A stretch of 64,000 nt of DNA from an uncultured Bdellovibrionales bacterium (GCA_964436855.1 CAYTED010000006.1:19681-83680), one strand, 5' to 3'. Shown: positions 10,434-52,841, numbered from the stretch's first letter. Translations and numbers: made by a program. Notes: generated from the sequence alone by a model not told the origin.

Positions 10434-10458
10434 GTGGCTTGTGATGGAGAAATAAAAA

Positions 10459-10486
10459 TCACCCGGAAGCACAAGCTTCCGGGTGA
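10459..10486. terminator. bidirectional rho-independent-type hairpin between convergent genes
   Basis: tcacccggaagc-acaa-gcttccgggtga perfect 12-bp stem, between the + gene ending at 10433 and the - gene ending at 10501. A TGTCTCA motif follows. Confidence 0.55.
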
Positions 10487-10500
10487 AAAGTTGTCTCATC

Positions 10501-17547: not shown

Positions 17548-17597
17548 GCTTGTTTCTTGAAGCGAACAGGCAAAGGGAGTACAATAAAAGAAAAAAA

Positions 17598-22255: not shown

Positions 22256-23551
22256 TTGCCATTTGGGCAAACCGGTTCTACCGCTTGCGCTTATCGAAAG
22301 GACATTCCTATTATTCAGCGACTTTTCAAAGGTTTGCTTGAACGAAAGGAAGATCTTGTTCAAAGCTTCCGGGATTTTCATACCCGGTTGCATCATTATC
22401 AGACTTCATTCTCGCGTTTCGTGAAAGAAGGAAAGACGGGGCGGTGGCTCCTTCGGACTTTTCGAACATCGTCGGCGTTTTCGGTGGTGTTCTCGAGCGC
22501 GCTTCTTGTTTCCGTAACCAATTTTTCCCAAGGGAGGGAAAATGACGGAACACTCCTCGGCTACTTCAGCGGTTCCGGTGAAACTGTGGCATCTTCGACC
22601 GGAAAGCGTCTTGCGGCGCAGCTTCCGCGTACTGACAATCTCTCGCTTGTACCCCTCGCGAGCGCGTCATCGAGCTTTGACGCGTCGGATAAAGATAGTG
22701 TCAGTACGATTTTCGATATTACCGGGAATACGAAGCTTTCGCTCGAGAGCCAGCTTGTCCTTTCGGATTATCAGGGCAGTCCGAATATCGCCCGCGATCC
22801 GGAAGAAGACGATGGAGTGAAAATCTACACCGTCGAATCGGGTGATACCATTTCCGGTATTGCGGCAAAGTTTGATATTACCGTAAACACCGTGCTTTGG
22901 GCGAACGATATTGAAAATATCGACTCGATCAAGCCGGGTGATCAGATCTTCATTCTTCCGATCGCCGGTCTTACACATATCGTGAAGGAAGGCGAGACGA
23001 TCGACGATATCGCGAAAAAATATCAGGCCGATCGTGAGAAAATTATCGCGTTCAATGACTTGCCGGCCAATGGAGAAATCAAGGCAAATGCGAGTATTGT
23101 TATTCCCGGCGGAGTAAAGGAAGTGCCGGTGGCATCGGGACTTGCATCGGGATTGGGGCGGCGTCAATACGCAACTTCGGCCGGCGGCGCGACAACCGAT
23201 CTCTCGGTTTCCGGTTGGCGAAAATTGGAAGGAAAGGCCGGCACGGGGCACCGGTTCCCGTATGGGTATTGCACGTGGTATGTGGCACAAAGGCGCTATG
23301 TGCCATGGGGAGGTAATGCGGGGACCTGGCTTTATAATGCGAAGGCGCTTGGGTATAAAACCGGCAAAGCTCCAACCGCTGGCTCGATCGTTGTGACGAC
23401 GGAAAACCGCTACTATGGTCACGTGGCCATTGTCGAAAAAGTCGAGAATGGGCAAATCTATGTGAGTGAAATGAATTACCGCGGTTGGGCGAAGACGAGC
23501 AAGCGCTGGCTTTTGACCTCAAGCCGCGTGATCAAGGGGTATATTTATTAG
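22256..23551 (+). CDS. peptidoglycan hydrolase with 2 LysM domains and a C-terminal CHAP domain
   Basis: Two LysM repeats (YTVESGDTISGIAAKFDITVNTVLWAN; HIVKEGETIDDIAKKYQADREKIIAFNDL). CHAP motifs with catalytic Cys (GYCTWYVAQ) and His (GHVAIVEKV). TM anchor. TTG start, uncertain. Confidence 0.8.
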   Translation: MPFGQTGSTACAYRKDIPIIQRLFKGLLERKEDLVQSFRDFHTRLHHYQTSFSRFVKEGKTGRWLLRTFRTSSAFSVVFSSALLVSVTNFSQGRENDGTLLGYFSGSGETVASSTGKRLAAQLPRTDNLSLVPLASASSSFDASDKDSVSTIFDITGNTKLSLESQLVLSDYQGSPNIARDPEEDDGVKIYTVESGDTISGIAAKFDITVNTVLWANDIENIDSIKPGDQIFILPIAGLTHIVKEGETIDDIAKKYQADREKIIAFNDLPANGEIKANASIVIPGGVKEVPVASGLASGLGRRQYATSAGGATTDLSVSGWRKLEGKAGTGHRFPYGYCTWYVAQRRYVPWGGNAGTWLYNAKALGYKTGKAPTAGSIVVTTENRYYGHVAIVEKVENGQIYVSEMNYRGWAKTSKRWLLTSSRVIKGYIY

Positions 23552-28932: not shown

Positions 28933-28953
28933 TTGTGTGGTAGAATAAAAAAT

Positions 28954-29349
28954 ATGATGTTCAATGTTCCACAATATATTGATATCGAAGACAAAATTGC
29001 CGGGCCGTTTACGGCGAAGCAACTCGGCTGGCTTTTTGCCGGTGGCGGGGCGTTGCTTGTTCTTTATTCGCTCTTTGATACCGCGACGCTTGCGGTAACG
29101 GGACTTCCGGTGCTTCTTTTGTCGCTCGCGCTCGCGTTTTATAAGCCGAACGGCGTTCCGTTTTCAAAGTTCCTCGTGCATGCGCTTCTCTATGTTTTTC
29201 GTCCGAAAATCGCGGTGTGGGAGCGTCCGGTGCGACAGGCGAATACATTGAAAATTTTTCCGGAACAGAAAAAGGAGGAAGTAAAAGAACAAAAGCATGT
29301 GACCGTAGCGGAAATTAGCGAAATTGCGAGAATGATTGACCAAAAATAG
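28954..29349 (+). CDS. VirB3/PrgI-like small membrane protein
   Basis: ~130 aa with two adjacent TM helices and the N-terminal motif VPQYIDIEDKIAGPFTAKQLGWL, immediately upstream of virB4-like genes. Confidence 0.45.
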   Translation: MMFNVPQYIDIEDKIAGPFTAKQLGWLFAGGGALLVLYSLFDTATLAVTGLPVLLLSLALAFYKPNGVPFSKFLVHALLYVFRPKIAVWERPVRQANTLKIFPEQKKEEVKEQKHVTVAEISEIARMIDQK

Positions 29350-29374
29350 TGACAAGTGACAAGGAATGTAAAGT

Positions 29375-30073
29375 ATGGAATTTCTGACAAAATCAAAAAA
29401 AGCGGAAGGATCGGGTCGGGCGAGTACCCAGCAATATATCGATGTCGAGCAGGTGCGCGATGGCGCGATCGTACTTCGGAATGGGTCGCTTCGCGCGGTT
29501 TTGCTTGTGTCGTCTGTGAACTTCGATCTCAAATCAAGCGAGGAACAAGACGCGACGATTATGCAGTATCAGAATTTCTTGAACTCGCTTGATTTTCCGG
29601 TGCAGATCGTGATTCAGTCGCGGCGGTTTAATGTGGAACCGTACCTCGCGCTTTTGCGGGACAAGGAAGCACAACAGGAAAACGAACTGCTTCGGTTTCA
29701 AATTTCCGAATACAAGTCCTTTATCGAAGGACTTGTGGAAGATCAGAATATTATCTCGAAGTTTTTCTATGTGGTCGTGCCGTTTTATCCGACCGAATCG
29801 CAATCGGAGGGGTTTGTGCAGAGGATCGGAGCGATGTTTAAGCCAAAGGAAACAATACTTGCCGATGAGAAGGTGTTCGAGGCGTACCGGAATCAACTCT
29901 ATCAACGCGTAAATCACGTGATGGCGGCGCTTGGAGCGACCGGCGTTCGACTCGCGGTGCTCGACACGGAAGATCTGATAGAGCTTCTCTACAATGCGTA
30001 TAACCCGTCACTTTTCACATCGGATGTGATTAAGGATTTGAGTCAGATAGAGTTGTCGGAAAAAGTACGGTAG
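29375..30073 (+). CDS. VirB4-like ATPase, N-terminal segment (split gene product)
   Basis: Matches the N-terminal region of Gram-positive-type VirB4/TcpF/PrgJ proteins (YIDVEQVRDGAIVLRNGSLRAVLLVSSVNFDLKSSEEQDATIMQYQNFLNSLDFPVQIV). Ends 88 bp before the main virB4 ORF, in a different frame. Confidence 0.55.
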   Translation: MEFLTKSKKAEGSGRASTQQYIDVEQVRDGAIVLRNGSLRAVLLVSSVNFDLKSSEEQDATIMQYQNFLNSLDFPVQIVIQSRRFNVEPYLALLRDKEAQQENELLRFQISEYKSFIEGLVEDQNIISKFFYVVVPFYPTESQSEGFVQRIGAMFKPKETILADEKVFEAYRNQLYQRVNHVMAALGATGVRLAVLDTEDLIELLYNAYNPSLFTSDVIKDLSQIELSEKVR

Positions 30074-30081
30074 GAAGAAGA

Positions 30082-30106
30082 GGTAACAGATAACAGATAA
30101 CAAAGG
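30082..30106. promoter_or_regulatory. tandem TAACAGATAA motif
   Basis: ggTAACAGATAACAGATAAcaaagg. The same 10-mer recurs at 32024, 49448 and 57369. Confidence 0.45.
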
Positions 30107-30108
30107 AA

Positions 30109-30149
30109 CCCCTCCCCGATCCTCCCCTTGAAAAGGGAAGGAGGGGAGG
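30109..30149 (+). repeat. polypyrimidine/polypurine hairpin repeat, copy b (3' arm is the virB4 Shine-Dalgarno)
   Basis: cccctccccgatcctcccc-ttgaaaa-gggaaggaggggagg; the GGAGG lies 9-13 nt upstream of the ATG at 30162. Confidence 0.7.
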
Positions 30150-30161
30150 TAAAGAAGAAGT

Positions 30162-32006
30162 ATGGAGTTGCCGTTTTTGGGAAAAAAGAATATCGCGGGG
30201 AACGGAATGGGAGCGCAAGATGCGGTTCCGATGGCGGCGTTGCGCGAAGAAGCGAATCTTTATCAGCGCGGACTTGCGTCGATGAAAGATCTGATTGCGC
30301 CGCCCGCGGTAAAAGTAACGTCGAATTCGATGCAAGTCGGGGCAACAATCACTCGAACGATGTTTGTGGTGGCGTACCCGCGATATTTGTCTACGAATTG
30401 GTTTTCCCCAATCGTGAATTTGGATTTTCCGATGGATGTCACGCTCTTTGTGCACCCGATCGATACCGGAGAGATTTTGAAACAGCTTCGGAAGTCGGCA
30501 ACGCAAGTGGAATCGCAAATCGAGATCGAACAGGAGGGTGGGAAAATTCGCGACCCCGTGCTCGAGACGGCGATGCAAGATATCGACGCGCTTCGAGACC
30601 GGCTTTTGCAGGGAACGGAAAAATTTTTCCGATTCGGGTTGTATCTCACGCTTTTTTCGGAAGATGAGACGAAATTGAACGAGATGAGTCAGACGATCGA
30701 ATCGCTTCTTGAGGCGCAACTCGTATATGTGAAGCCGGCCGTACTTCGGATGGATGAGGGGTTCGCCTCGACGCGCCCCTTGGCGACCGACAATCTTGAT
30801 GTCGCGAATAACCTTAATACCGGACCGCTTTCAACCACGTTTCCGTTTGTGTCGTCGGATCTTTCGTCGAATACAGGGATTCTCTACGGTATCAATCGAC
30901 ACAACAATTCGCTCATTCTTTTTGATCGGTTCAAGATGGAAAACGCGAATATGGTGGTGTTCGCAAAATCCGGCGCCGGAAAAAGTTATACCGTGAAACT
31001 TGAAGTATTGCGGACGATGATGATGGGGACGAGCGTGATTATTATCGATCCGGAAAACGAGTACAAGCATCTTGCCGAAACGGTCGGAGGATCGTTTCTT
31101 AAGATCTCGCTGAATTCGGAAGTACACTTGAATCCGTTTGATTTGCCGAAGATTGCCGAATCGGACGATCCGGAAGGCGTGTTTCGGAATACAATCGCAA
31201 GTCTTGTCGGACTTTTGCACCTGATGCTTGGGACGGTTACGCCGGAAGAGGATTCGATTCTTGACCGGGCGATTCGCGAGACTTACGCGATCCGCGATAT
31301 CAGCGAGCGAGCGGACTTCAAGTCGCTTGACGCTGGGTCGTTCCCGACAATGTCGGACCTCTATGCGGTGCTGAAAAATATGGAAGGAGCGGAATCGCTC
31401 GCGGCACGGCTCGAGCGGTATACCGAGGGGATTTTTGCCGGCTTTCTCAATCATCAGACGAATATTACGACGGAAAATCAGCTGGTTGTTTTTAACATTC
31501 GAGATCTCGAAGACGAGCTTCGGCCGATCGCGATGTATATTATTCTCCAGTATATTTGGAATGAAATGCGATCGAATATGAGGCAGCGGATTGTTGTCGT
31601 GGATGAAGCGTGGGTAATGATGCAACACGAAGATGCAGCCGCGTTTCTTTTTGGTGTCGCGAAGCGTTGTCGGAAATATTTTACCGGCCTCACAACGATT
31701 ACGCAGGATATTTCCGATTTTATGGCGTCGCGATTCGGGAAGCCGATCGTTACGAATTCCTCGATGCAGCTTCTTCTCAAACAGTCGCCGTCGTCGATTG
31801 ATGTGATCGCGGAAACGTTTTATCTCACCGATCACGAGAAGTTTCTCTTGCTCGAATCGAATGTGGGCGAGGGGATTTTCTTCGCGGGGACGAAACATGT
31901 TGCGATTAAGGTGATCGCTTCGTACAGCGAGGATCAGATTATTACGACCGATCCGCGGCAGCTCCTCGAAATCGAAGAGGCGAAGAAGGAGTTTGAGGGG
32001 AAGTGA
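30162..32006 (+). CDS. VirB4/TrbE/CagE-family type IV secretion ATPase (main segment)
   Basis: CagE_TrbE_VirB-region motif (TMFVVAYPRYLSTNWFSPIV), Walker A VVFAKSGAGKSYTV, Walker B RIVVVDEAWVMM, 614 aa. Confidence 0.85.
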   Translation: MELPFLGKKNIAGNGMGAQDAVPMAALREEANLYQRGLASMKDLIAPPAVKVTSNSMQVGATITRTMFVVAYPRYLSTNWFSPIVNLDFPMDVTLFVHPIDTGEILKQLRKSATQVESQIEIEQEGGKIRDPVLETAMQDIDALRDRLLQGTEKFFRFGLYLTLFSEDETKLNEMSQTIESLLEAQLVYVKPAVLRMDEGFASTRPLATDNLDVANNLNTGPLSTTFPFVSSDLSSNTGILYGINRHNNSLILFDRFKMENANMVVFAKSGAGKSYTVKLEVLRTMMMGTSVIIIDPENEYKHLAETVGGSFLKISLNSEVHLNPFDLPKIAESDDPEGVFRNTIASLVGLLHLMLGTVTPEEDSILDRAIRETYAIRDISERADFKSLDAGSFPTMSDLYAVLKNMEGAESLAARLERYTEGIFAGFLNHQTNITTENQLVVFNIRDLEDELRPIAMYIILQYIWNEMRSNMRQRIVVVDEAWVMMQHEDAAAFLFGVAKRCRKYFTGLTTITQDISDFMASRFGKPIVTNSSMQLLLKQSPSSIDVIAETFYLTDHEKFLLLESNVGEGIFFAGTKHVAIKVIASYSEDQIITTDPRQLLEIEEAKKEFEGK

Positions 32007-32046
32007 GGCAGAGAAAGATGATTGATAACAGATAATACTATTTTGT

Positions 32047-32598
32047 ATGCCGGTACCGATTGTTGCGGCGGTTGGAGGAGCAGCGGTGCGAGGAGTCGCC
32101 TCTGGTGGCGCGCGTTCGACGATTCGCGGAACTGCTCGGAATGCTCGTCGAAAATATATTGAAGCGACGGAACAGGCGTTTTTGTTTGAGCAGGGTGAGG
32201 CGGAGATACGGAAACATCATACATCGCTTCTTCTATATGCACCCGCATTTATGGTCGCTGGTTTTAAGGATATGATGGATTTGGTTGGTATCGGATCGCT
32301 TCCGGGCATCGGAACGATTGTGACTCTTTGTTGCTCGATACTGATTTTTCTTCTTTTGTTTATCACGCGGACGAATAAATCTCTCATTCAATCGCGATTT
32401 TTGATTCGAGCCGGACTGATTCTTATTTTCGCGACTCTCGTCGAAGGACTTGCGTTGGGCCTTAATTTTCTCCCCATAGAGATAATGACGATCTATGCGA
32501 TTTATTGGCTTGACAAGCACGAAGGATCAAAGGCCGCGCAGGCGATTCAAGGGACGCTTTCTTTGGTAGCTCGTTCCGGAAAGTTTGGAAGAGAGTAA
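32047..32598 (+). CDS. membrane hypothetical protein
   Basis: 183 aa with 3-4 TM helices and a Gly/Ala/Arg-rich N-terminus. A TAACAGATAA motif sits immediately upstream. Confidence 0.45.
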   Translation: MPVPIVAAVGGAAVRGVASGGARSTIRGTARNARRKYIEATEQAFLFEQGEAEIRKHHTSLLLYAPAFMVAGFKDMMDLVGIGSLPGIGTIVTLCCSILIFLLLFITRTNKSLIQSRFLIRAGLILIFATLVEGLALGLNFLPIEIMTIYAIYWLDKHEGSKAAQAIQGTLSLVARSGKFGRE

Positions 32599-33277
32599 TA
32601 TATTTGAATTTATGAATACTATTGTTGTACGTGAAATGTTTTCGGATCGAAAATTCCTTGTAACCGGAGGAGTGATAATCTCAATTCTTCTTCTGTATGC
32701 GTTTTTTCCGGAATCGGTCGGACTCGCGCCGGTTCTTCAGGGCATTATTGCGCTCTTTCTTTTCTTTTTCCTCTTTCCGGTTCTCTATTGTAAAATAATA
32801 CTGAAGGAACCGATCTTTACGCTCGGATTTCGGTTTCCGGAGGGGGTGGCCGGTTGGTTTTTTGTTCTTTTTGCGGTCGTTCTTGGTATCGGAGGAGCTT
32901 TTCTCTTGAAGATATTTTTTCCGGAAGCAATGTCCGACGCGGCGATTCCCGATACGGTCAGAAAATCGTTTGGATCGTTCCTTCGGTTCGAACTTTTTTC
33001 GATCGTTATTCTCTTCTTGTATGAAGTGTTTTTCCGCGGGTTCGTAATGCTTTCGTGGCTTTCTCGATTTGGTCGGGGATCGGTGGTATTGCAGTGGGTC
33101 GTGTTTATGTTGTTTCTTGCAACCACGGGAACATTCGGGTGGGATCAGGCGCGGATGATTCTTTTTGCGCCGCTTGCCGGGTGGATCGCGCTTTCGACTC
33201 GATCAATCGGCTTCTCGTTTCTTGCGGCGACTCTTTTTTTTCTCATCACCGATATTATTATTCTTTTTTCCCGATAA
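32585..33277 (+). CDS. CPBP-family (CAAX protease/Abi-like) intramembrane protein, tentative
   Basis: Multi-TM protein with an EExxxR-like motif (LYEVFFRGFV). Confidence 0.35.
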   Translation: MEESNIFEFMNTIVVREMFSDRKFLVTGGVIISILLLYAFFPESVGLAPVLQGIIALFLFFFLFPVLYCKIILKEPIFTLGFRFPEGVAGWFFVLFAVVLGIGGAFLLKIFFPEAMSDAAIPDTVRKSFGSFLRFELFSIVILFLYEVFFRGFVMLSWLSRFGRGSVVLQWVVFMLFLATTGTFGWDQARMILFAPLAGWIALSTRSIGFSFLAATLFFLITDIIILFSR

Positions 33278-33280
33278 TAT

Positions 33281-36031
33281 ATGAATCAAAAAAACAAAAA
33301 ATTTTTGAGAAGTACGCTCGCGGTCGTTTCCGCGTTTGCGGTTATCCTCCAAGTGTCTTTTCCGGTCGCGTTTGCGCGTGGGATAAAAATCCCCTCGCCG
33401 TCGGAAGTCGCCGCCGAACTCGAGCAACGCTATAATCTGAATCTCGGGAGTATTCAGACACAGTCGCAACAATTCAATGTCGCCAATCAGAAAAAGACAA
33501 CTCCGGAAGTTTCGCTTTTTTTCTCTCCGTCCGATCCGAAGCCGGGGCAGAAAGTATCCGCCGCGGCGCTTCCGGCATTTTTTTCGAATGAGAAAAGCGA
33601 TCTTTATTTTACCTGGTATTTGAAACGGAAAGACTGTGATCTGACGAATAGTCCGAGCGCGGAAGAGCGTCTTCGTTGCGATGCCGATAATAATGGGAAA
33701 ATTACGGTTAACGATTGGAAGGTGGAAGCCGCTCGCATTGTCGCGCTGAACGGATATGACAATGGCGACGCGGATTATTCTCCGGCAAACGGAGACAGCG
33801 ACTCCGACGGATACAAGGCTCTTTTCGGTGGTGATAACAAACCCGGATCCCCGGATCGATGCGCGGTGTATGATTCCGGGTCGGGGGATATTTACGAGAT
33901 CGGCAAGGGAGGAAATACGAATATCGATATCTGTCCCGCCGGAACAACTCCCGCTTGTATGATTGCTCGGGAAGAGGTGAGCGGCGGAGATTTTTCTTCC
34001 GGATCAGGATCGGCGTTTTCGGTTGCGGATACGACGGTGTGCGATTTTGCCGGGTATCCGTATTGCTCTACAACGACCACCACCTGTCGAACGGGAAGTT
34101 TGAAATGCGTTTCCGATCCGTATGCGGGAAGTTGCGGCTCGGATCCGTCGACAACCACATGTAGCGTAACGACATCGTCTTCTTTCACCTCCAAGTGCCG
34201 ACACCTTTTTGCGAGTTCCGGAACGGGTCAAACAGGAGATGGCAATTTTAAAAATGAGGAAGAAGAATTTTGGCGCACCGATCCCAAGGATCCCGGGACG
34301 GCGAACAATGGCAATAAGGATGAGGCGAATATCGTCGGACTCGGTCGGGATACGTTTTCGTGGACCTATGACGCCGGCGACAAGGTAGGGGTTTCGGTGG
34401 AGGGTACCTCTATGATCACCACAAAGCACGATGATTCTTCCGCGTATATTATGTGGGCGTTTTCGAAAAACAAGTGTCCGATTGCGGAAGCGGACGACAC
34501 GGGCGGATATGTGAAAAATATTCGCGGGTTCAATGTAACATTTCCCACGGCGGATATTGATTTGAATAAATGTCTCGAGATGAATTTAGTCGATCCTGCG
34601 GAAGGGGGGCAGCCGGGACAAATCTCGGTCGATGTTTCCGCTACGCCGGATCGTCCGGTGAATGATGAAACGGGAAATCTTTCGGGCGATATCGTGCTCG
34701 CGCTCGCTTCCCTTTCCAATTCTTCGAAAACACCGGGAGAAATTTTGTTCGAGTGGAGAGTGAGTCTCGCGAATAATATTCAATTCGACAATAGTGGATC
34801 CGGTCGACGATCGACCGATATCACGGATGAATTGAAGGAAGAAGGCTTGCTTCGGAATGTTCGCGGGAACGGACTTTCGCAGCTTTCACTCCCGATGAAT
34901 CTTCCGAAGTCATTCAAATCCGGCTTGCGGCTTTCGGATTATCTTGATTCCAGTAAGACCGGGTATATCCGGTTCTCTCTGCTTGCTTCCGAAAATTTCG
35001 ATTCCGGTCCGACGCGAAAAGGGCGCGGTGAAGCGATTCTCAAATTTCAGAATGTCGGAGACCGGATCAATGCCTATGCGCCAACCGTATCCGGAAATCC
35101 CGCCAAGCTTTCTTTTACTACCGGAAAAAACGGAACGGAAATTTGTAACGAAAATCTTTTTTCCGAATCGGTGTGCAAGGTAATGAAAAATGAGATTATC
35201 GGACTTACGGTCGGGACGAGCGGATTCGACCGGTTTCATTGGACGGTGAACGGAAAACCGCTTGGGTGCTCGTCTGTATTATCGGCGCGATGTAAAGATG
35301 ATGAAGAGACCGATACGGTATTTTTGCCGATAATCGGCAATGTCGGTGAAACATATACGATATCGGTTGATGCGACAAATATTGTGTCCGGGGCGGCGGC
35401 AACCCTGTCTCGATCGTTTCGCATTGTCGATCCGGATGTTGAAATATTGTCTCTCGATACCAATTCGGCGTGGAGGCGTTTACTTGGGCAGTACAAGGAT
35501 TTGGACGGAAAACTTTATGATGATGTGAGTCGGACAAGTTTTCAGGCGTTTGGAGGAGGCGAGGTTCGACTGAAACCGGAATTTTCTCCCGGCTTTTTAC
35601 AGAAACTTTCGCAGCGCGAATGGAGGGTTGACGGGCAGGTGGTTGCGGAGAATTCCGACGGCGAGCTCTCCTTTATCGTTGAAAAGCCGGCCGGATCGAC
35701 CTACGATGTGGAGCTTTCCGCTCTTTACAATCAATCGACGGAGATTCGGAAAATATTGCGGGACTTTTTCAATATTTCCGTGTTTGATTCGGATGATGTG
35801 AGATTCTCAAAGACGATTCAGGTGGAAGTTGTCGAAAGCGAGGATTCGGTTGCGAGTGCTAAGAAGGGTATTTTCGGCAATCAGACCGGACTCGCGGCAA
35901 TCGCAAGTTATCTTCCATCCTCGATTCTTTTCTCGTTAAAGGTGATACTCTCGGGATTTCTTATTCTCGTTATCGCGTCGTTCGCTCTTTCGATTCAACC
36001 GAGTGTTCCGATACGCCGCTCGGAGGAGTAA
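33281..36031 (+). CDS. giant Cys-rich surface protein with signal peptide and C-terminal TM anchor
   Basis: 916 aa with signal peptide (AVVSAFAVILQVSFPVAFA), many Cys/Asp/Gly/Thr-rich segments, and a C-terminal hydrophobic anchor (ILSGFLILVIASFALSI). Confidence 0.55.
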   Translation: MNQKNKKFLRSTLAVVSAFAVILQVSFPVAFARGIKIPSPSEVAAELEQRYNLNLGSIQTQSQQFNVANQKKTTPEVSLFFSPSDPKPGQKVSAAALPAFFSNEKSDLYFTWYLKRKDCDLTNSPSAEERLRCDADNNGKITVNDWKVEAARIVALNGYDNGDADYSPANGDSDSDGYKALFGGDNKPGSPDRCAVYDSGSGDIYEIGKGGNTNIDICPAGTTPACMIAREEVSGGDFSSGSGSAFSVADTTVCDFAGYPYCSTTTTTCRTGSLKCVSDPYAGSCGSDPSTTTCSVTTSSSFTSKCRHLFASSGTGQTGDGNFKNEEEEFWRTDPKDPGTANNGNKDEANIVGLGRDTFSWTYDAGDKVGVSVEGTSMITTKHDDSSAYIMWAFSKNKCPIAEADDTGGYVKNIRGFNVTFPTADIDLNKCLEMNLVDPAEGGQPGQISVDVSATPDRPVNDETGNLSGDIVLALASLSNSSKTPGEILFEWRVSLANNIQFDNSGSGRRSTDITDELKEEGLLRNVRGNGLSQLSLPMNLPKSFKSGLRLSDYLDSSKTGYIRFSLLASENFDSGPTRKGRGEAILKFQNVGDRINAYAPTVSGNPAKLSFTTGKNGTEICNENLFSESVCKVMKNEIIGLTVGTSGFDRFHWTVNGKPLGCSSVLSARCKDDEETDTVFLPIIGNVGETYTISVDATNIVSGAAATLSRSFRIVDPDVEILSLDTNSAWRRLLGQYKDLDGKLYDDVSRTSFQAFGGGEVRLKPEFSPGFLQKLSQREWRVDGQVVAENSDGELSFIVEKPAGSTYDVELSALYNQSTEIRKILRDFFNISVFDSDDVRFSKTIQVEVVESEDSVASAKKGIFGNQTGLAAIASYLPSSILFSLKVILSGFLILVIASFALSIQPSVPIRRSEE

Positions 36032-45861: not shown

Positions 45862-47267
45862 GGCGGTTTCAAAACAAAAAAACAGGACGGGTGTTTCGTG
45901 TTTTGGCAGTGGCGTTTTTTCTCGTCTCGGCGATTTCTCTTTCCGGGTGCGGCTTCAAAGAGCAAGAAGAGCCGTATGCCGTTACGCTTGAAATGTGGGG
46001 TGTGTTTGACGATACCGACGCGTTTCAAGATGCGATCGGCGAATACTTGCGTACCAATCCGCATGTTCGGAATATCGAATATCGGAAAATGCCGGTTGAT
46101 ACGTATGAAAAAGATCTTCTTGAGGCGCTTGCCACCGGCAACGGGCCGGATATTTTTCTCATTCGCAATTCGTGGCTTCCGTCATATATCGACAAAGTGG
46201 CGCCGGCCGACCCCGCGTTTATTTCCGAGCGATCCTATCGCGATACATTTATCGACGTCGCCGCGGATGATTTTTTCGCGGAAGGAAAGGCGTATGCCGT
46301 CCCGCTCTCGGTTGATTCTTTGGGATTGTATTACAACAAGAGTCTTTTGAATGCTGCCGGCATCGGCTCTCCGGCGCGAACATGGGACGAACTTGCCAAG
46401 CAGGTCCGGCTCCTGACCAAGGTGGATGAGTATGGGAATATTACGCAGGCAGGTGTCGCACTTGGTACCGCGTACAATATCAATCGTTCGACGGATATTC
46501 TCTCGGCGCTTTTTCTTCAGTTTGGCGCGAGGATTGATTCTTACAAGGAAAATCAGGTTGATTTTCAGAAAGAGGCGAGCGACGCGATGCAATTTTATAC
46601 GGAATTTTCTCGACGCGGCGAATACTATTCTTGGGACAGCCGGGAGCATTATTCTCACGATGCCTTTTACGAGGGATCGCTTGCGTATATGATCAATTAC
46701 TCGTGGCATATTCCGACGATTCGCCAGAAAAACGCAAAGCTTGATTTTGGAGTTGCTTCACTTCCGCAGTTCAATGGTGTCGCGCCGGTGAACTTTGCGA
46801 ATTACTGGGGGTTTGCGGTGGCGAAAAATAAAATTGCTCCCACGCCGAATCCCGGAGAGCCGGTTACGCTTCCCGCCGGAAAAGAAAATGACTTGCGAAT
46901 TTTCGAGTCGTGGCAGTTTCTTCGGTATCTTTCGTTTCCGAATAAGGGGGCGATCACCCTCAAAAACGCGCTTTCGGGAAATACGAGGGAGTTTCCGATG
47001 AAAATCGATCCGGCGAAGAAGTATCTTGAGGTAACCGGAAAGCCGGCCGCGCGTCGGGATCTTCTTGAGGCGCAGAAAAGCGACTTGTGGCTTGGTCCGT
47101 TTGCCGAGGGAAATCTTATCGCAAAGAGCTTTCGGCAGTATCGACCGGAGCAAACCGAGGCGCTTCTCGCGGAAGCGATCGACAATGTGAATCGCGGGGC
47201 GTTGTCGATTTATAATGCGCTTGATCTTGCAAAATCGAAAATCAATCAGGTAAATGGGGAAAGGTGA
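45858..47267 (+). CDS. extracellular solute-binding lipoprotein (ABC transporter SBP family 1-like), orphan
   Basis: Lipoprotein signal (LSGCGF), then a pattern typical of sugar-type SBPs (GNGPDIFLIRNSWLPSYID...). No permease or ATPase genes adjacent. Confidence 0.7.
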   Translation: MRRFQNKKTGRVFRVLAVAFFLVSAISLSGCGFKEQEEPYAVTLEMWGVFDDTDAFQDAIGEYLRTNPHVRNIEYRKMPVDTYEKDLLEALATGNGPDIFLIRNSWLPSYIDKVAPADPAFISERSYRDTFIDVAADDFFAEGKAYAVPLSVDSLGLYYNKSLLNAAGIGSPARTWDELAKQVRLLTKVDEYGNITQAGVALGTAYNINRSTDILSALFLQFGARIDSYKENQVDFQKEASDAMQFYTEFSRRGEYYSWDSREHYSHDAFYEGSLAYMINYSWHIPTIRQKNAKLDFGVASLPQFNGVAPVNFANYWGFAVAKNKIAPTPNPGEPVTLPAGKENDLRIFESWQFLRYLSFPNKGAITLKNALSGNTREFPMKIDPAKKYLEVTGKPAARRDLLEAQKSDLWLGPFAEGNLIAKSFRQYRPEQTEALLAEAIDNVNRGALSIYNALDLAKSKINQVNGER

Positions 47268-47315
47268 TTCGGACAGTAGATACAAGGTTACGTAATTCGG
47301 TATTCGAATAAAGAA

Positions 47316-48371
47316 ATGCGGGTGAGTTTTCAAAAACTTTTTTTCGTGATCGGAAGTTCTCTTTTTGTATGGATGCAACCGACATCGGTCGGGGCGGCGC
47401 TTGTGCCGTGCGGCATCGGGGATGGTCCGGCGTGTACGCTCTGTCATATTATTGTCGGTGGCAAGGGTTTGATCGACTGGGGAATGAGCATTATGGTGAT
47501 CGTCGGGATCGCGCTTATTACGATTGCCGGTATTCGGTATGTCGTTTCGATCGGTCGATCGGGCGAAATGGGCGCCGCGAAGGGGATGATCGGGAAAACG
47601 CTCGGCGGGATCGCGCTTCTCCTGACGGGATGGTTGATTGTGAATGTAATCATTACCGTTCTTGCAAACGACAATCTCGGTATCGGCATTCAAAAAGAAA
47701 ACTGGTACAAGTTTTCGTGTGATGCGAAATCGGCGATAGAAGCGTCGGCGGAAGGGGCGATTCTTTCTCGCGGGAGTGATTCAAAACAAATCGCTTGTGA
47801 AAATGCCGATACGATGAAATCACGGCTTTCGAGCGGGGGCGGGGTATGCGTCGGGGTATGCCAGAGGAATGCATGCAGTTTTTCCGGTCCGGTCGATATC
47901 GCGATCCGCGAAGCAAAACTCCCGAATGGTATTTCGAGAAACCTTCTTGCCGCGGTGATCTGCCAAGAATCAAGCGGTCGAGCGTCGGCAACCAACACCA
48001 GAGGCTCTTTTACGAGTTGTGGACTGATGCAGGTAAATTCAAACGAGGTCGGCAATACGACCTGTACCGACAAGGTGAATTTGTTTGATCCGAAAATAAA
48101 TATCGAAAAGGGACTGGAAATTCTTTCCAAAAAATTCTCGAGTGTCAGCGCCGAGAAATATAAGACTGTCTCGAAAACGAACCAGGCGCTCGCGGCGTAC
48201 AATTGTTGCGGAAATGGCGAGAATCCGAATACCGAAAGCGTGAGTTGCAAGGCAAATGACGGGTGGGAATCGGTTCCAAGATGGGCGTGTCCGATTGATC
48301 CCGGTGGAATGTGTGTTGTCCGGGAGTATGCGTGCGATGTGGCGCTGTGTGAAGGACAGTATTCATATTAA
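47316..48371 (+). CDS. fusion of a TrbC/VirB2-like pilin module and a lytic transglycosylase (SLT/VirB1-like) domain
   Basis: N-terminal signal plus Cys motif (LVPCGIGDGPACTLC) and a two-TM pilin-like hairpin, then an SLT domain with catalytic-Glu motif AVICQESSG and GLMQV. Confidence 0.6.
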   Translation: MRVSFQKLFFVIGSSLFVWMQPTSVGAALVPCGIGDGPACTLCHIIVGGKGLIDWGMSIMVIVGIALITIAGIRYVVSIGRSGEMGAAKGMIGKTLGGIALLLTGWLIVNVIITVLANDNLGIGIQKENWYKFSCDAKSAIEASAEGAILSRGSDSKQIACENADTMKSRLSSGGGVCVGVCQRNACSFSGPVDIAIREAKLPNGISRNLLAAVICQESSGRASATNTRGSFTSCGLMQVNSNEVGNTTCTDKVNLFDPKINIEKGLEILSKKFSSVSAEKYKTVSKTNQALAAYNCCGNGENPNTESVSCKANDGWESVPRWACPIDPGGMCVVREYACDVALCEGQYSY

Positions 48372-48518
48372 TCCTGATTTTTTCAAGCAATCTTTCTGTG
48401 CCGGAAAATTTCCAGCGAAACTTTCCTGAAGTTGAAGAAAAAACTTTTCTGCTGGAACAGCAAAGACCGTGCTTTTTTCTTCAAATTCGCCCAGAAAGAT
48501 TCTTGAAAAAAATCAGGA
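48371..48518. repeat. nested-palindrome intergenic element, copy 2
   Basis: Outer 27-bp inverted repeat atcctgattttttcaagcaatctttctg / cagaaagattcttgaaaaaaatcagga. The core ctgaagttgaag...aaagaccgtgcttttttcttcaaattcgccc is homologous to 27000-27060. Confidence 0.55.
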
Positions 48519-48531
48519 AGGATTCAGTGAT

Positions 48532-48810
48532 ATGATTTTATTTGAAACAGCGAAGGCGGCGGGGGTGATTGAAAGCGCACCATCGGTCGGAGCGCTTTTC
48601 TCGAATATTCTCTTCTTTTTGTTGTCGGTTGTCGGGATCGTTGGTATACTGGGGATGGTGTTCTCCGGTTTTCAGTATCTCTTTTCATTTGGCGATGCCA
48701 AGAGGGTGGAACAGGCGAAAGCATCGTTTCGGTATTCGGTGATCGGCATTCTTGTCGCTCTCGGGGCGCTCATTCTTTTGAAAACGATCGAAGGGTTGTT
48801 GCGACAGTGA
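48532..48810 (+). CDS. TrbC/VirB2-like pilin
   Basis: ~92 aa with two TM helices and the pattern FSNILFFLLSVVGIVGILGMVFSGFQYLFSFGDAKRVEQAKASFRYSVIGILVALGALILL shared by the paralogs. Confidence 0.6.
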   Translation: MILFETAKAAGVIESAPSVGALFSNILFFLLSVVGIVGILGMVFSGFQYLFSFGDAKRVEQAKASFRYSVIGILVALGALILLKTIEGLLRQ

Positions 48811-48850
48811 AAGGTTATGGGTACTGAAAAGTTTTTTCCCCTCTCCTTTC

Positions 48851-48935
48851 GCGGAGGAGGAGGCAGGGGGAGGTGGGAATGAAATCTAAACCCCTCCTCA
48901 ATCCTCCCCGCCAGCTGGCGGAAAAGGGGAGGAAG
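48851..48935 (+). repeat. polypurine arm plus polypyrimidine/polypurine hairpin repeat, copy c
   Basis: gcggaggaggaggcagggggaggtggg...cccctcctcaatcctcccc-gccagctggcggaaaa-ggggaggaag. Confidence 0.65.
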
Positions 48936-48976
48936 CGAACTTGGTAAAAATAAAAACAGAAAGGAGGTGACGGCAC

Positions 48977-49342
48977 ATGATACAAACAATGAAAAAAATC
49001 GGATATGGAATTGCTGCGAGCGCAATGATGTCGGCTCCGATGGCGGCATTCGCGCAGTGGAATGCGAGCAATTACTCAAGTAGCGGTCTTTCCAATACGA
49101 GCGTGACCACACTTATCGTGAACATAATGAAGTGGCTCCTCTATCTCCTTGGATTCATCGCTATTATCGGATTTGTTATCGCGGGCGTTCTCTATCTTAC
49201 CGCGTACGGTGATAAGGAGCAGATCGACAAGGCGAAAAAAGCGATGCTCTATTCGATTGTTGGCGTGCTTGTGGCACTGATCGGATTTATCGTCGTTACC
49301 GCGGTCACCAATTTCCTTTCGGGAGGAACGACCTCGATTTAA
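48977..49342 (+). CDS. TrbC/VirB2-like pilin
   Basis: Signal peptide (AASAMMSAPMAAFA), TTLIVNIMKWLLYLLGFIAIIGFVIAGVLYLTAYGDKEQIDKAKKAMLYSIVGVLVALIGF. Confidence 0.6.
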   Translation: MIQTMKKIGYGIAASAMMSAPMAAFAQWNASNYSSSGLSNTSVTTLIVNIMKWLLYLLGFIAIIGFVIAGVLYLTAYGDKEQIDKAKKAMLYSIVGVLVALIGFIVVTAVTNFLSGGTTSI

Positions 49343-49466
49343 TGCAGAGAAGTCAAAGTGTATACACTTCGAAACAATCCCGCCTTTTTGGCGGATTGTT
49401 TTTTTTCGTGCGTATGGGATAATATGGGAAGAAGAGAAGGTATATTTGATAACAGATAATTTTTTT

Positions 49467-50078
49467 ATGAAGAAATATTTTTTTGTCTCGTTTGTATTTT
49501 TTGCAGCTCTTGTTTTCTTTGGTTTTCAGGGGGCGGCGTTTGCGCAGCTTGCTCCGCTTCAGTGTGTATCTGAAAATGCATCGTGTCAGCTCAATAATAC
49601 TACGATAGGTATATGTAAGAAGGTGTGTTCTGAATTTGACAACTCCTGCGGGCTTTCTTGTTCTGCTGATCCAAATGCCAAGACAAGTACAGCACTCCCG
49701 ACTCCCTCGACGAGTACGACGCAGCAGAGCCCAACCCAGGCGCAAAGCAGTACGAGCGCCCCTGTTCCGGTAACCTCTATCAAGCGTACCGGGCCGATTG
49801 TTCCGTCGTCGCAGGAACTTTTCGGATTGCCGGATACGTCAATTACGACACTGATTACGAATCTGATGGGGTGGCTCCTCTATATTTTCGGATTTATCGC
49901 GATTATCGCCTTTATTATTTCGGGATTGCAGTATCTGACGTCGGCGGGGGACTCGAAACAAATTGAGACCGCAGAATCAACAATGAAATATGCAATGCTT
50001 GGTGTCCTTGTAACGCTCGGATCGCTTGTTGTGATCAAGGCGATCGAACGAATGCTCCGCGCCTCGCTTATTTTCTGA
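49467..50078 (+). CDS. TrbC/VirB2-like pilin with N-terminal Cys-rich extension
   Basis: Signal peptide, six Cys (CVSENASCQ..CKKVCSEFDNSCGLSC), a Thr/Ser/Pro linker, then the pilin module ITTLITNLMGWLLYIFGFIAIIAFIISGLQYLTSAGDSKQIE. Confidence 0.55.
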   Translation: MKKYFFVSFVFFAALVFFGFQGAAFAQLAPLQCVSENASCQLNNTTIGICKKVCSEFDNSCGLSCSADPNAKTSTALPTPSTSTTQQSPTQAQSSTSAPVPVTSIKRTGPIVPSSQELFGLPDTSITTLITNLMGWLLYIFGFIAIIAFIISGLQYLTSAGDSKQIETAESTMKYAMLGVLVTLGSLVVIKAIERMLRASLIF

Positions 50079-50091
50079 AATGTTTTTCTGT

Positions 50092-50847
50092 ATGACCCGA
50101 CATCGAAATACTTTTTTTTCTTTTGTTCTCGCTTCGCTCGTGTTTTTTTCCGGAGCTGCTTCGGTTTCGGCACAAGCGCCGAGTTGTGCAAGTTTTGGCG
50201 GGACATGTGAATTAAGTTGTGATCTTTCGGTGACAGAGGATAAGACACCGGTATCTGATTGTAAAATTCCACCGAAGCAGACTTGTTGCGTCGCAAAAAA
50301 ATCACCCACGTCTTCGTCGGTAGGTCTGTCCGATGTTCAAATCACCAATTCTTTGAAATACGATTCCGTGGAAGCATTTGTTTCGGCGGTGCTTGTTACA
50401 ATTCAAGGGATTGTCGCGACGCTTGCGGTGCTTGCGATCGTGATCGGCGGCGTTCTCTATATTATTTCCGCTGGCAATTCGACGTGGATGGGGTATGCGA
50501 AAGGAGCGATTACCGGGGCGCTTATCGGACTCGCTCTCGTGATCGCGGCACCATCGTTTTTGAAAGAAATTTACGATATCCTTGGCGCTCGAAACAAACC
50601 GGCTGAAGTTTCGGCGGCGCTTTCTCTTACGCAGATTGCGATGAATGTGCTCAATTTCCTCCTCTCCATTATCGGTGTCCTCGCGGTGATTATGCTCATT
50701 ATCGGCGGGCTCACTTATCTCACTTCGGCGGGGGATACGAAGCGTATCGAAACCGGTCGGAATATCGTAAAATACGCGTTCATCGGTATTACGGTCGCCC
50801 TTGCGTCGCTTATTCTTATCCGAACGGTCGAAGGACTGCTTCGGTAA
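50092..50847 (+). CDS. tandem double TrbC/VirB2-like pilin with N-terminal Cys-rich segment
   Basis: Two successive pilin-like modules (..AILVLAIVIGGVLYIISAGNS.. and ..NVLNFLLSIIGVLAVIMLIIGGLTYLTSAGDTKRIE..) after a Cys-rich signal region. Confidence 0.55.
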   Translation: MTRHRNTFFSFVLASLVFFSGAASVSAQAPSCASFGGTCELSCDLSVTEDKTPVSDCKIPPKQTCCVAKKSPTSSSVGLSDVQITNSLKYDSVEAFVSAVLVTIQGIVATLAVLAIVIGGVLYIISAGNSTWMGYAKGAITGALIGLALVIAAPSFLKEIYDILGARNKPAEVSAALSLTQIAMNVLNFLLSIIGVLAVIMLIIGGLTYLTSAGDTKRIETGRNIVKYAFIGITVALASLILIRTVEGLLR

Positions 50848-50910
50848 TTTATTCTTGAAAAACAAAAACGGGCGAAGCGCGATGATACTGTGCTTGCCCG
50901 TCTTTACCTC

Positions 50911-52044
50911 CTACAACCGGATTCCGGTGTAGAAGTTGATCTTGATTTGCGTGGGACCGCTCAAGATCAAAGTGGTTTTCAATGTGCTAGGGATATTGAA
51001 TTCCCCGGAGGCACACCCACCTACATCGCTCTCGAACTCTCCGTCACCCGGGAGGGCTTTGTTGAGAACGAGTGCCCACGCGCGGTTTTTCGGACCCGGG
51101 AGCATCTCTCCTTTCGGATCGACACTCTCCGTACCGCTCACGTCGCGGGCTCGCTTTTCGTACTCGACGCCGTTTGACGTTTCGTATCCAACAATGAGCG
51201 ACCCGTCGACCTTGAACCGATATTGTTGCATCGGCTCGAGCCCACAGACCTCGATCGGCTTCGCGAGCGAGTCGACTCGGATGATTTTTTCGAGGCCGAC
51301 CACCTTTGCTTTGAGAGCATCGGTTCTTGGCGTCTTCCTCACCTCCGCGTAAACTTTCTTCACGAGCTCGGGATGGTCTTTCCTTGAAAGGTTTCCCTTT
51401 CGGAGCTCTTCCATCTCGCGGGCTTTCGCGGCATTCTCCCGATCTTCGAGATCGTTGAGAATTTGCTGTGCCGCCACTTGTTGTGGTGGTGTCGCAAAGG
51501 CGCGGAGTGGATCGAACCCCAAGAGGTTGATCCTCGTGGCCGATGGGAACATCGCCACGATTCCGACGGCACACATCGCGAGGAATATCCACGCCGTGAT
51601 TCGCCGGTACCACTTTACCGGCGTTTGGTAGTGCCAACACCAGAATCCGAAGCCGATGAGCCCCGCGACGAGGATCATCGATTGGATGAAGTTGCCTTTG
51701 AGGGGGAGTAGGAACGTCGCCCCTACAAAGGCTGCGAGGAAGAGGCCAGCCGAGACGCAGAAGTTTTTGTACTTCTTGAACGCGTCGTCGACCGCGAGTC
51801 CCACGACTCCGACCATCACGAGCACGTACGGCTGTATTGCGAAGTATGTGACCGCCGCAATCGCCGGGATGAGGAGGAGGACATTCACGAGTTCCTTGCC
51901 GATGAATCCGGCAAAGATCATGCCGAGTCCGAACAGTACCAGATTCACGACGACCCGGAAATACAGGGTGTCGTAGAAGATCTGGGCATTGCGTCCGGCT
52001 CGGAGGAATGCGAGCTGTGCAGCCCGCCGAATCAGTGTGAACAT
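50911..52044 (-). CDS. polytopic membrane hypothetical protein (GC-rich patch)
   Basis: 377 aa with at least 6 TM helices in the N-terminal half and a soluble C-terminal domain. GC content is above the neighbours. Confidence 0.45.
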   Translation of the reverse strand: MFTLIRRAAQLAFLRAGRNAQIFYDTLYFRVVVNLVLFGLGMIFAGFIGKELVNVLLLIPAIAAVTYFAIQPYVLVMVGVVGLAVDDAFKKYKNFCVSAGLFLAAFVGATFLLPLKGNFIQSMILVAGLIGFGFWCWHYQTPVKWYRRITAWIFLAMCAVGIVAMFPSATRINLLGFDPLRAFATPPQQVAAQQILNDLEDRENAAKAREMEELRKGNLSRKDHPELVKKVYAEVRKTPRTDALKAKVVGLEKIIRVDSLAKPIEVCGLEPMQQYRFKVDGSLIVGYETSNGVEYEKRARDVSGTESVDPKGEMLPGPKNRAWALVLNKALPGDGEFESDVGGCASGEFNIPSTLKTTLILSGPTQIKINFYTGIRL

Positions 52045-52067
52045 TTAATACTCCTTTCCCCGAACCT

Positions 52068-52841
52068 TCAGAAGGTCCGGATATCGTTGTTGGTCATGAG
52101 CATGAAAGCTACCATGCCCACGATGGCGAGTACTGCGAGGAGGTACCAGAGCATTCGACCGGGTTTATCGTTGGCCGTCCGCTCCGTCAACCACTCACGC
52201 CCTTGGCGCTCGTGATCACGTTGCCATCCGTCGAGCTGCGATTTCAATTCCTCGACGGAGTTCACTCCGAAGAGTTTGAAAATCTCTTTCTGAAGTTTGA
52301 CGCTCTTTACGAGTCGGATGACATACTTCAAATCATCCTTTGGACCCGAAAGGGTCTTGGAATCACGAAGTATCTTCACGGCTTCTTTTGGATCCATCGA
52401 GCAAAAAAGCTTGAGGATCATTGCTCCGCGGATATTTCCGACGGTTTTGGCATCATGATACCCGCCTTGACCATCGGGGATCCTGATCGTTACATCACTT
52501 TCGCGACGACCGATCATTTGGTAGAACTTTTTGCATTCGCCCGGATTCTTTTTGAGTATACCGAGAATTTGAGCAAGATGGTTGAGTTCTTGTTGGTTCA
52601 GTATGCCCTTGTTTTGACCAAGAGCAACCGCCCCCCAGAACAACGTTTCATCATCAAGGCCAAATCCAAATGGATCTGCGGCGAGCTTGTCCTTATCAGG
52701 TGCTTGTTGTTGCACGCCTTCGAATTTCTGACGTGCCGCCCCTATCGCTTGGCCGATCGTCCCATAACCCAGGAACGAGCCGAGCGTTTCAAATCCTCCG
52801 AGGATTTTTTTCCAGGTTTCCCTGTTGTCAACCATCTCCAT
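52068..52841 (-). CDS. hypothetical protein with C-terminal TM anchor
   Basis: 257 aa with a C-terminal TM (MLWYLLAVLAIVGMVAFMLM). Convergent with nothing annotated. Confidence 0.45.
   Translation of the reverse strand: MEMVDNRETWKKILGGFETLGSFLGYGTIGQAIGAARQKFEGVQQQAPDKDKLAADPFGFGLDDETLFWGAVALGQNKGILNQQELNHLAQILGILKKNPGECKKFYQMIGRRESDVTIRIPDGQGGYHDAKTVGNIRGAMILKLFCSMDPKEAVKILRDSKTLSGPKDDLKYVIRLVKSVKLQKEIFKLFGVNSVEELKSQLDGWQRDHERQGREWLTERTANDKPGRMLWYLLAVLAIVGMVAFMLMTNNDIRTF

Follow-up and report, generated by a model that had tools for sequence, protein, structure and literature searches.

An ordered array of VirB2-like pilin genes with a pilin-muramidase fusion: a candidate subunit set for a patescibacterial type IV secretion system

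The window analysed here is a stretch of 64,000 nucleotides (nt), filed under an uncultured Bdellovibrionales bacterium (GCA_964436855.1, CAYTED010000006.1:19681-83680), that carries five consecutive genes for VirB2-like pilins on its plus strand, at 47316-50847, as the initial annotation of this DNA had it. The genes, referred to here as F, p1, p2, p3 and D (g1 to g5 in order), recur as an ordered set in related genomes. We consider it reasonably probable that they encode a heteromeric subunit set for a patescibacterial type IV secretion system (T4SS), in which p2 would be the major subunit and F, where a pilin module is fused to a GH23 muramidase domain, would be a pilin-anchored VirB1-like enzyme. 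The genes and the expression signals around p2 are as follows, with lengths in amino acids (aa) and with the starts of the open reading frame (ORF) list where these differ.

47316-48371, plus strand: F, fusion of a pilin module with a GH23 muramidase domain, 351 aa
48532-48810, plus strand: p1, minimal pilin, 92 aa from the ATG (ORF list: GTG 48469, 113 aa)
48961-48967, plus strand: Shine-Dalgarno (SD) site AAGGAGG, 5' of p2
48977-49342, plus strand: coding sequence of p2, candidate major pilin, 121 aa, signal peptide ...AFA/Q
49380-49404, plus strand: intrinsic-terminator-like hairpin CCGCC-TTTTT-GGCGG with a T-run, 38 nt past the p2 stop codon
49467-50078, plus strand: p3, pilin extended at its N-terminus, 203 aa (ORF list: TTG 49446, 210 aa)
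50092-50847, plus strand: D, tandem double pilin, 251 aa (ORF list: 50080, 255 aa)

The five genes and their pilin modules

For p3 and D, the starts given above are those of the gene callers (ATG 49467 and ATG 50092, respectively). In the case of p1, the start is most likely ATG 48532 rather than GTG 48469, because the ATG and the sequence AGGAAGGA just 5' of it are both kept in a relative (L062), and because p1 orthologues are 90-102 aa long, with the module at the C-terminal end. The five genes contain six two-helix membrane modules that align without a gap, with a consensus close to the one written for the shared two-transmembrane (TM) module in the initial annotation. The Pfam family T4SS_pilin (PF18895) is matched by p1 at 32.1 bits, p2 at 40.8 bits, p3 at 30.8 bits and D at 64.5 bits, all above the curated gathering threshold of 26.6 bits, which places the four proteins in the family. 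The match to D falls in two stretches, and the AlphaFold2 (AF2) model of D has two hairpins (93-125/130-164 and 179-211/216-250; mean predicted local distance difference test score, pLDDT, 79.1), in keeping with the tandem pair of modules first described for this gene.

The module of F has no Pfam T4SS_pilin match at E<=0.1. Residues 53-118 of F do match a hidden Markov model (HMM) of the modules of the other four genes, at 25.2 bits and E=5e-7 among the 659 six-frame ORFs of the window, and PF18895 is a precomputed match on about half of the F orthologues, together with PF01464. With the same HMM and the same 659 ORFs, no further copy of the module is found in the window (the next ORF has E=0.86), a result that holds despite the presence of other multi-TM ORFs.

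The assignment of the array to the VirB2-like pilins is supported. In its favor are the above-threshold PF18895 scores and an hhalign comparison of 32 CPR (candidate phyla radiation) modules with seven annotated VirB2/TrbC sequences, which gave a probability of 70.5% and E=3.9e-5 over 63 columns, with both helices covered and in register. However, matches to TrbC/VirB2 itself (PF04956) are sub-threshold, with scores of 18.1 bits for p1, 23.4 bits for p2 and 22.4 bits for p3 (E=7e-5 to 3e-3); the Pfam scan gave no PF04956 match for D, and some D homologues carry precomputed PF04956 matches. Likewise, none of the five proteins has an above-threshold family in NCBIfam, where the array pilins match only the Mbov_0395 pilin-like family (NF045849) at a sub-threshold 18-30 bits (cutoff 40). 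On these sequence comparisons, the array proteins are best filed as PF18895 or 'VirB2-like' proteins, rather than as demonstrated members of TrbC/VirB2. A tblastn search with p2 of 72,556 plasmids found nothing at E<=1.

The modules are predicted to fold as hairpins of two helices joined by a short charged loop (pLDDT 76-95 in the AF2 models of F and D), and these lie behind a signal peptide in all proteins but p1. Signal peptides in F, p2, p3 and D, and the lack of one in p1, were judged by eye from hydropathy and, for the cleavage sites, A-x-A motifs. Whereas p1 is little more than a module that extends to the very C-terminus, p3 consists of a signal peptide (...AFA/Q), a 6-Cys segment, a Ser/Thr/Pro-rich linker and the module at aa 131-197 (numbered from TTG 49446), and D of a signal peptide, a small 6-Cys beta-rich domain, a module Da with a conserved AAPSFLKEI motif, and a module Db. 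The Cys-rich N-terminal segments that had been noticed in p3 and D each hold six Cys within 33-35 aa, and four of the six in D are nearly invariant among its homologues, of which at least 217 were found, many of them 230-400 aa long.

The genes that flank the array are housekeeping genes (for IF-2, a DUF4446 protein, a methyltransferase, a solute-binding protein, NusA, a pyrophosphatase and trigger factor), and homologues are named Candidatus Moranbacteria or Moraniibacteriota. Thus, judged by gene content and by its relatives, the window is chromosomal DNA of Patescibacteria (CPR), from a Moranbacteria-like organism. Many of the third-party-annotation records of metagenome-assembled genomes that contain the operon bear the title 'uncultured Bdellovibrionales' or 'Candidatus Saccharibacteria' (L006, L008-L011, L013, L015, L029, L030 and L019-L054). 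By the look of their genes and of their nearest relatives, these records resemble Moranbacteria or Paceibacteria, and the titles appear to be taxonomic mislabels.

A fixed gene order and a candidate major subunit

The order F, p1, p2, p3 (sometimes followed by a p4) and D recurs in 11 other genome loci, and also in L004, where the array has the same flanking genes as in the window. The products measure about 355 aa for F, 90-120 for p1, about 120 for p2, and 250-353 for the two-module D, and the final gene of the array encodes two modules in 12 of the related loci whose DNA covered that gene. Each module of the window is closest to the module at the same position elsewhere, and not to its neighbors in the array. 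The best same-position identities in another genome are 0.54 for F, 0.48 for p1, 0.63 for p2 (the highest of the window modules), 0.55 for p3, 0.56 for Da and 0.62 for Db, and same-position identities between genomes are about 0.47-0.63, as against 0.14-0.50 within the window's own array. This orthology by position holds across lineages in which the F proteins share only 33-45% identity, and the duplications, like both of the fusions, therefore predate the split of these lineages. The array is thus a long-established and fixed collection of distinct subunits, and not the product of a recent expansion.

One gene of the set, p2, stands out by its expression signals. A strong SD sequence (AAGGAG or GGAGG, at a proper spacing to the ATG) precedes p2 in 12 of 12 loci, and precedes F, p1, p3 or p4 in none of the 12, even with all candidate start codons allowed. 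Moreover, in 11 of the 12 loci the intergenic gap after p2 holds a GC-containing perfect stem-loop and a T-run, a combination found by the same test after only one of the 46 other array genes of those loci. The stem sequence of this terminator-type hairpin is unrelated from one locus to the next. Of the five genes, p2 also gives the best per-module pilin scores (40.8 bits for PF18895, E=7e-5 for PF04956 and 30.1 bits for NF045849). Together, the SD sequence, the hairpin and the pilin scores suggest that p2 is probably the major subunit, with attenuation ahead of the minor ones.

Polymer-forming major subunits show such a pattern, in which an attenuator comes after the dedicated gene of a highly expressed subunit. 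For instance, the chaperone-usher systems fim and pap, and type IV pili, have one major subunit gene with an attenuating terminator and several low-abundance paralogs, the latter with adaptor, tip or adhesin roles. The folds and assembly machines of these systems are unrelated to those considered here, and the likeness is one of operon logic only.

The fusion protein and its link to the VirB4 cluster

F begins with a Sec-type signal peptide (aa 1-27, ...SVGA/A) and a Cys motif, PCG-x5-PAC-TLCH (aa 31-44), which are followed by the two-helix hairpin (aa ~45-118), a low-confidence linker (aa 119-159) and the GH23/SLT (soluble lytic transglycosylase) domain (aa 160-351). The enzyme domain matches PF01464 (E=3.8e-15, aa 197-300) and has the GH23 motifs, including the catalytic E218-S219 pair, AYNCCG, and the QESSG and GLMQV sequences that had first drawn attention to it. 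Thus F has an SLT/GH23 domain with the catalytic Glu-Ser motif of VirB1-like hydrolases. Among 31 F homologues, E218, S219, Y75, S78 and G80 are invariant, and C32, C40, C43, H44 and C135 nearly so; the first four of the latter belong to the PCG...C-x2-C-H motif ahead of helix 1, whereas C135 sits past helix 2. About 14 Cys lie in the GH23 domain, consistent with a position outside the cytoplasm.

An AF2 model of F built with the 31 homologues (mean pLDDT 77.8) contains a signal-peptide helix, the hairpin helices 42-77 and 82-117 (pLDDT 76-88), a linker of low confidence, and a GH23 domain with pLDDT above 90. A search of the PDB with the F profile found goose-type lysozyme (2e-11), then MltE, MltC and Slt70, and Foldseek placed the model with Slt, MltF and lysozyme at a probability of about 1. 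The reading of this gene as a pilin-SLT fusion is therefore borne out by Pfam for the enzyme, by the local HMM for the module and by the model for both. The fusion is unusual, as had been remarked, in comparison with canonical T4SSs, but it belongs to a family that is conserved in this class of Patescibacteria: about 30 F homologues of roughly 350 aa were found, and a scan of one genome per species gave 49 GH23 loci.

Upstream of the array lies a T4SS gene cluster with a VirB4 ATPase, the features of which are listed here.

22256-23551, plus strand: peptidoglycan hydrolase with two LysM domains and a CHAP domain, just upstream of the T4SS cluster
24492-26546: 7-TM protein
28933-36031, plus strand: core of the T4SS cluster
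28933-29349, plus strand: PrgI/VirB3-like protein (PF12666, 44.2 bits)
29375-30073, plus strand: conserved 232-aa protein
30162-32006, plus strand: VirB4 ATPase (NF045971, CD1110 family, 367.8 bits, cutoff 325)
32047-32598, 32585-33277 and 33281-36031, plus strand: three membrane or secreted proteins

The initial annotation put the array 11 kb from the virB4 locus, which is a fair description of the end of the cluster (its last gene, 33281-36031, ends 11.3 kb upstream); the VirB4 gene itself is 15.3 kb upstream. The window ORFs that were scanned included no recognisable relaxase or coupling protein. That the array belongs with the virB4 system is supported by other genomes, where F-type genes are linked to virB4. 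Nomurabacteria and Paceibacterota-type genomes have the same GH23 domain (39% identity, including the C-terminal signature rich in Cys) behind a divergent two-TM hairpin, and in 22 loci such an F-type GH23 gene is encoded on the same strand as a VirB4 orthologue and 3-5 kb downstream of it, the orthologue sharing 56% identity with the VirB4 of the window. The muramidase is thus encoded with T4SS genes in orthologous loci, as VirB1-like hydrolases are, and 11-15 kb from them in the window. In L017 (Moraniibacteriota), the arrangement is contiguous, with VirB4, three partner genes orthologous to those at 32047-36031, and then the F-type gene. Compared with this order, the arrangement of the window looks like a split version of the contiguous cluster, and the proximity of F-type muramidases to virB4 in sister lineages suggests that F is probably the VirB1 equivalent of the cluster.

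In four loci of the sister lineages inspected (L033, L053, L025 and L036, at about 7.6-12 kb in each), the T4SS cluster ends with a hairpin-GH23 gene, which is directly followed by putative yidC and rnpA genes and then by two larger ORFs that are candidates for dnaA and dnaN, as judged from ORF lengths and N-terminal sequences. Such a placement would fit a published remark that patescibacterial T4SSs are often near dnaA.

The F-type hairpin is also found joined to domains other than GH23. A HMMER search with F over 1.84 billion cluster representatives gave 2068 matches, 500 of them at E<=1e-10 and 31 at E<=1e-30, and the best 150 of the 2068 had the following architectures.

F-type module with GH23: 37
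F-type module with another C-terminal region, 100 aa or longer: 42
Module alone: 41
GH23 with no match to an F-type module: 23
Module with a long N-terminal region: 7

The C-x2-C motif is kept in 113 of the 127 F-type modules among these 150. Domains present in the ten largest examples, which were sampled, include Big_2, TSP_3 and CARDB/Ig-like domains, and two proteins (P0153, 887 aa, and P0162, 872 aa) have an N-terminal Peptidase_S8 (subtilase) domain, a central F-type hairpin and a C-terminal SLT domain. In three loci, the genes occur as adjacent pairs (L017, 6854-8673; L028, 5663-7954; L040, 6851-8977) in which the signal peptide and pilin-hairpin halves are near-identical and the C-terminal domains differ, one partner having GH23 and the other no Pfam match. 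These pairs look like the outcome of a duplication that was followed by a swap of the cargo domain.

Comparison with known systems and alternative explanations

VirB2-like pilin arrays as such are already known for Patescibacteria (PMC12102498, PMC10633639, PMC12857230). In the portion of the article available to us, Quinonero-Coronel et al. 2025 (PMC12102498) describe a search of 3,035 Patescibacteria genomes with PF18895 and PF04956, which found 441 VirB2 arrays, spread over 383 assemblies. These arrays hold 2-11 genes, have a mean identity of 25% and are commonest in Microgenomatia and Saccharimonadia. An array is defined there as at least two PF18895 or PF04956 genes, in tandem or one gene apart, in a genome with VirB4; the locus described here has five consecutive genes, and VirB4 in the genome. 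It resembles the published arrays in its tandem PF18895 genes of low mutual identity (about 25% in PMC12102498 and 14-50% here), in its chromosomal location and in its association with a VirB4 of the MPF_FATA-like type (MPF, mating-pair formation). However, it comes from Moranbacteria, of the class Paceibacteria, and lies 11 kb from the virB4 cluster. Moreover, the accessible part of PMC12102498 describes, for its arrays, neither a fixed, ordered set with positional orthologues nor a single strongly expressed member, a leading pilin-muramidase fusion or a terminal double pilin, and the part of its supplement at hand has no entry for PF01464 or SLT. No description of a pilin-lytic transglycosylase fusion in Patescibacteria was found in the literature searched, nor was one of the fixed subunit set, the candidate major pilin or the family of cargo-bearing modules.

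The virB1-virB2-virB3 genes of MPF_T systems (the Agrobacterium Ti plasmid and its relatives) offer a second comparison. There, too, a lytic transglycosylase gene is immediately upstream of the pilin gene, the pilin is a two-helix hairpin with a signal peptide, and VirB4 is the partner ATPase, so that the enzyme-first array is collinear with the plasmid order. MPF_T systems, however, have a single pilin and a VirB1 that is a protein of its own, soluble and periplasmic, whereas here a covalent link joins the enzyme to a pilin-type hairpin, four more pilin genes follow, the host is a monoderm and the similarity to VirB2 is marginal. The VirB1-like hydrolases of Gram-positive bacteria (TraG of pIP501, PrgK of pCF10 and CD419, as covered in the available portion of PMC12102498) are alike in having an N-terminal membrane anchor and an extracellular SLT domain, and in their association with VirB4 proteins of the CD1110/PrgJ type; a CHAP protein is likewise present in the window, at 22256-23551. 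They differ in that their anchor is a simple TM helix and SLT and CHAP are combined (PMC12102498, same portion), whereas F has a pilin-family hairpin behind a cleavable signal peptide, with SLT and CHAP on separate proteins.

On the reading that we favor, the five genes would form the subunit operon of a chromosomal, monoderm-type (MPF_FATA-like) T4SS in a Moranbacteria-like host. All five proteins would sit in the membrane as VirB2-like helical hairpins with both ends outside and the positively charged loop inside, four of them after cleavage of a Sec signal peptide and p1 without one. The abundant filament- or conduit-forming subunit would be p2, and p1, p3 and the covalent double pilin D would be specialised subunits of low abundance, with p3 and D exposing small disulfide-rich N-terminal domains. 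The hairpin of F would hold the GH23 muramidase on the outer face, where it would open the peptidoglycan for the apparatus (the task of VirB1) and possibly cut the host cell wall as well, and the VirB4 ATPase cluster 11-15 kb upstream would supply the assembly motor.

Several points weigh against this reading. The PF04956 scores of 18-23 bits remain below the gathering threshold of 27.9 bits; phmmer with p2 and searches with the 32-module HMM found no solved pilin among PDB sequences, only chance TM matches, and Foldseek of the D model against the PDB gave generic helical bundles only. The link to VirB2 thus rests on weak sequence signals, which could be inflated by hydrophobic composition. 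The call of p2 as major subunit is likewise drawn from signals in the DNA and protein sequences only, and housekeeping genes separate the array from virB4 in this genome. No T4SS among Patescibacteria has been observed with a filament, and pili are normally lacking from the T4SSs of monoderms (PMC12857230). In addition, a filament could pack a globular domain of 190 aa on each of its subunits only with difficulty, and F may therefore be membrane-anchored only.

These last points lead to the main rival explanation, in which the proteins are T4SS parts without an extended pilus, that is, membrane-embedded or wall-spanning hairpins of a channel, with the F hairpin as a docking anchor for extracellular domains. 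In this they would be like the small two-TM proteins of monoderm systems and of the integrative and conjugative elements of Mycoplasma, which are wall-less bacteria, and the sub-threshold matches of the pilins to NF045849, the model of a pilin-like conjugal transfer protein of these Mycoplasma elements, point the same way. So do the CD1110 type of the VirB4, which is a monoderm type, the many different C-terminal domains borne by F-type modules, and the membrane anchors of monoderm VirB1-like hydrolases (PMC12102498, in the portion available). Five distinct hairpin proteins, however, exceed a simple anchor role, the combination of a major subunit with an attenuator is that of polymer-forming subunits, and a pilus in these monoderms is treated as possible in a 2025 review (PMC12857230). 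On balance, the absence of a pilus is a rather unlikely explanation of the array.

The initial annotation had seen in the array a paralog expansion suggestive of antigenic or functional diversification, and the paralogs would then be interchangeable variants of one subunit, expanded and shuffled so as to vary an antigenic surface or to suit different hosts. The paralogs are indeed highly divergent (14-50% identity), and the available part of PMC12102498, with Bartonella and Anaplasma as analogues, suggests that patescibacterial arrays might provide host-range versatility. Yet the modules are orthologous by position even where F is only 33-45% identical, gene number and order are fixed, the architecture is specific to the position (a signal-less p1, Cys domains in p3 and D, a double D), and strong expression signals are found at one gene only. 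Substrates for recombination are also lacking in the window, which has no silent or partial module copies outside the array and no long tracts shared between paralogs, the longest inter-paralog DNA repeat being 40 nt at 78% identity. Positional orthology and the lack of long repeats argue against antigenic variation and for distinct structural roles, making this explanation improbable. An origin as a phage-type lysis cassette or its remnant, with holin-like two-TM proteins beside a muramidase, is hardly credible. The small two-TM proteins and the weak PHROGs matches of the F GH23 domain to phage endolysin and lytic tail families (E=6e-6 to 4e-3) would be in its favor, but p1, p2, p3 and D match no PHROG family, the housekeeping flanks (IF-2, methyltransferase, solute-binding protein, NusA) are kept in a distant relative, and the signal peptides, PF18895 membership and virB4 linkage in 22 loci all speak against it. 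The flanks and the lack of PHROG matches for the pilins effectively refute a holin-endolysin cassette.

Returning to a heteromeric subunit set, the variety of domains joined to F-type modules allows a broader but doubtful proposal, namely that in Patescibacteria the VirB2-like hairpin serves generally as a scaffold for display. The T4SS would assemble a heteropolymeric appendage of one major and several minor pilins, into or onto which F-type modules would bring covalently attached cargo, namely lytic enzymes (the GH23 muramidase and, in some relatives, an S8 protease) and domains of adhesin type (Ig-like, CARDB, TSP3). The hairpin is predicted to have its two ends outside, so domains at either end would be extracellular. 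If this proposal were true, the appendage would be a tool, armed with enzymes, that breaches the envelope of the host cell as the epibiont grows. The Cys-motif modules with their enzymes and adhesin-like domains suggest a route by which tools are presented at the site of host contact. For the sole patescibacterium that is genetically tractable, the T4SS is essential (PMC10633639, PMC11665869), and the pilin series in the T4SS cluster of Southlakia epibionticum is essential (Wang et al. 2023, PMC10633639). A conserved operon provides concrete targets, including a filament protein to be sought, subunits to be tagged or depleted, and an enzyme to be assayed, for which a comparison of host and self peptidoglycan becomes concrete.

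Further features of the window were observed in passing. The gap between F and p1 (48372-48520) is filled by an extended hairpin of about 150 nt with 30-nt arms (48372-48401 and 48489-48518), a minimum free energy of -58 kcal/mol and z=-6.4; none of 200 shuffles folds as well, and the hairpin is the sole one of its kind in the window. It has no Rfam match, and a scan of 47000-51200 found nothing near threshold. Only the final ~45 nt before ATG 48532 are common to this gap in L062, and the left arm of the hairpin resembles an inverted copy of these conserved ~45 nt. Because the hairpin is not conserved in L062, the closest relative, it was rejected as a conserved regulator. The minus-strand genes at 50911-52841 were likewise rejected as part of the system, since they are not conserved beside the array in L004.

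A few kb upstream of the T4SS cluster is a gene for a CHASE4-PAS-HisKA-HATPase sensor histidine kinase (17550-19727), and a tyrosine recombinase gene of the Phage_integrase family (21062-21997, minus strand) lies beside the LysM-CHAP gene, either as a XerC/D-like gene or as a sign of an integrated element. The region 10001-12525 has the highest GC content of the window (0.54 versus about 0.46), and contains two long, overlapping ORFs on opposite strands, 10483-12120 on the plus strand (545 aa) and 10501-12525 on the minus strand (674 aa).

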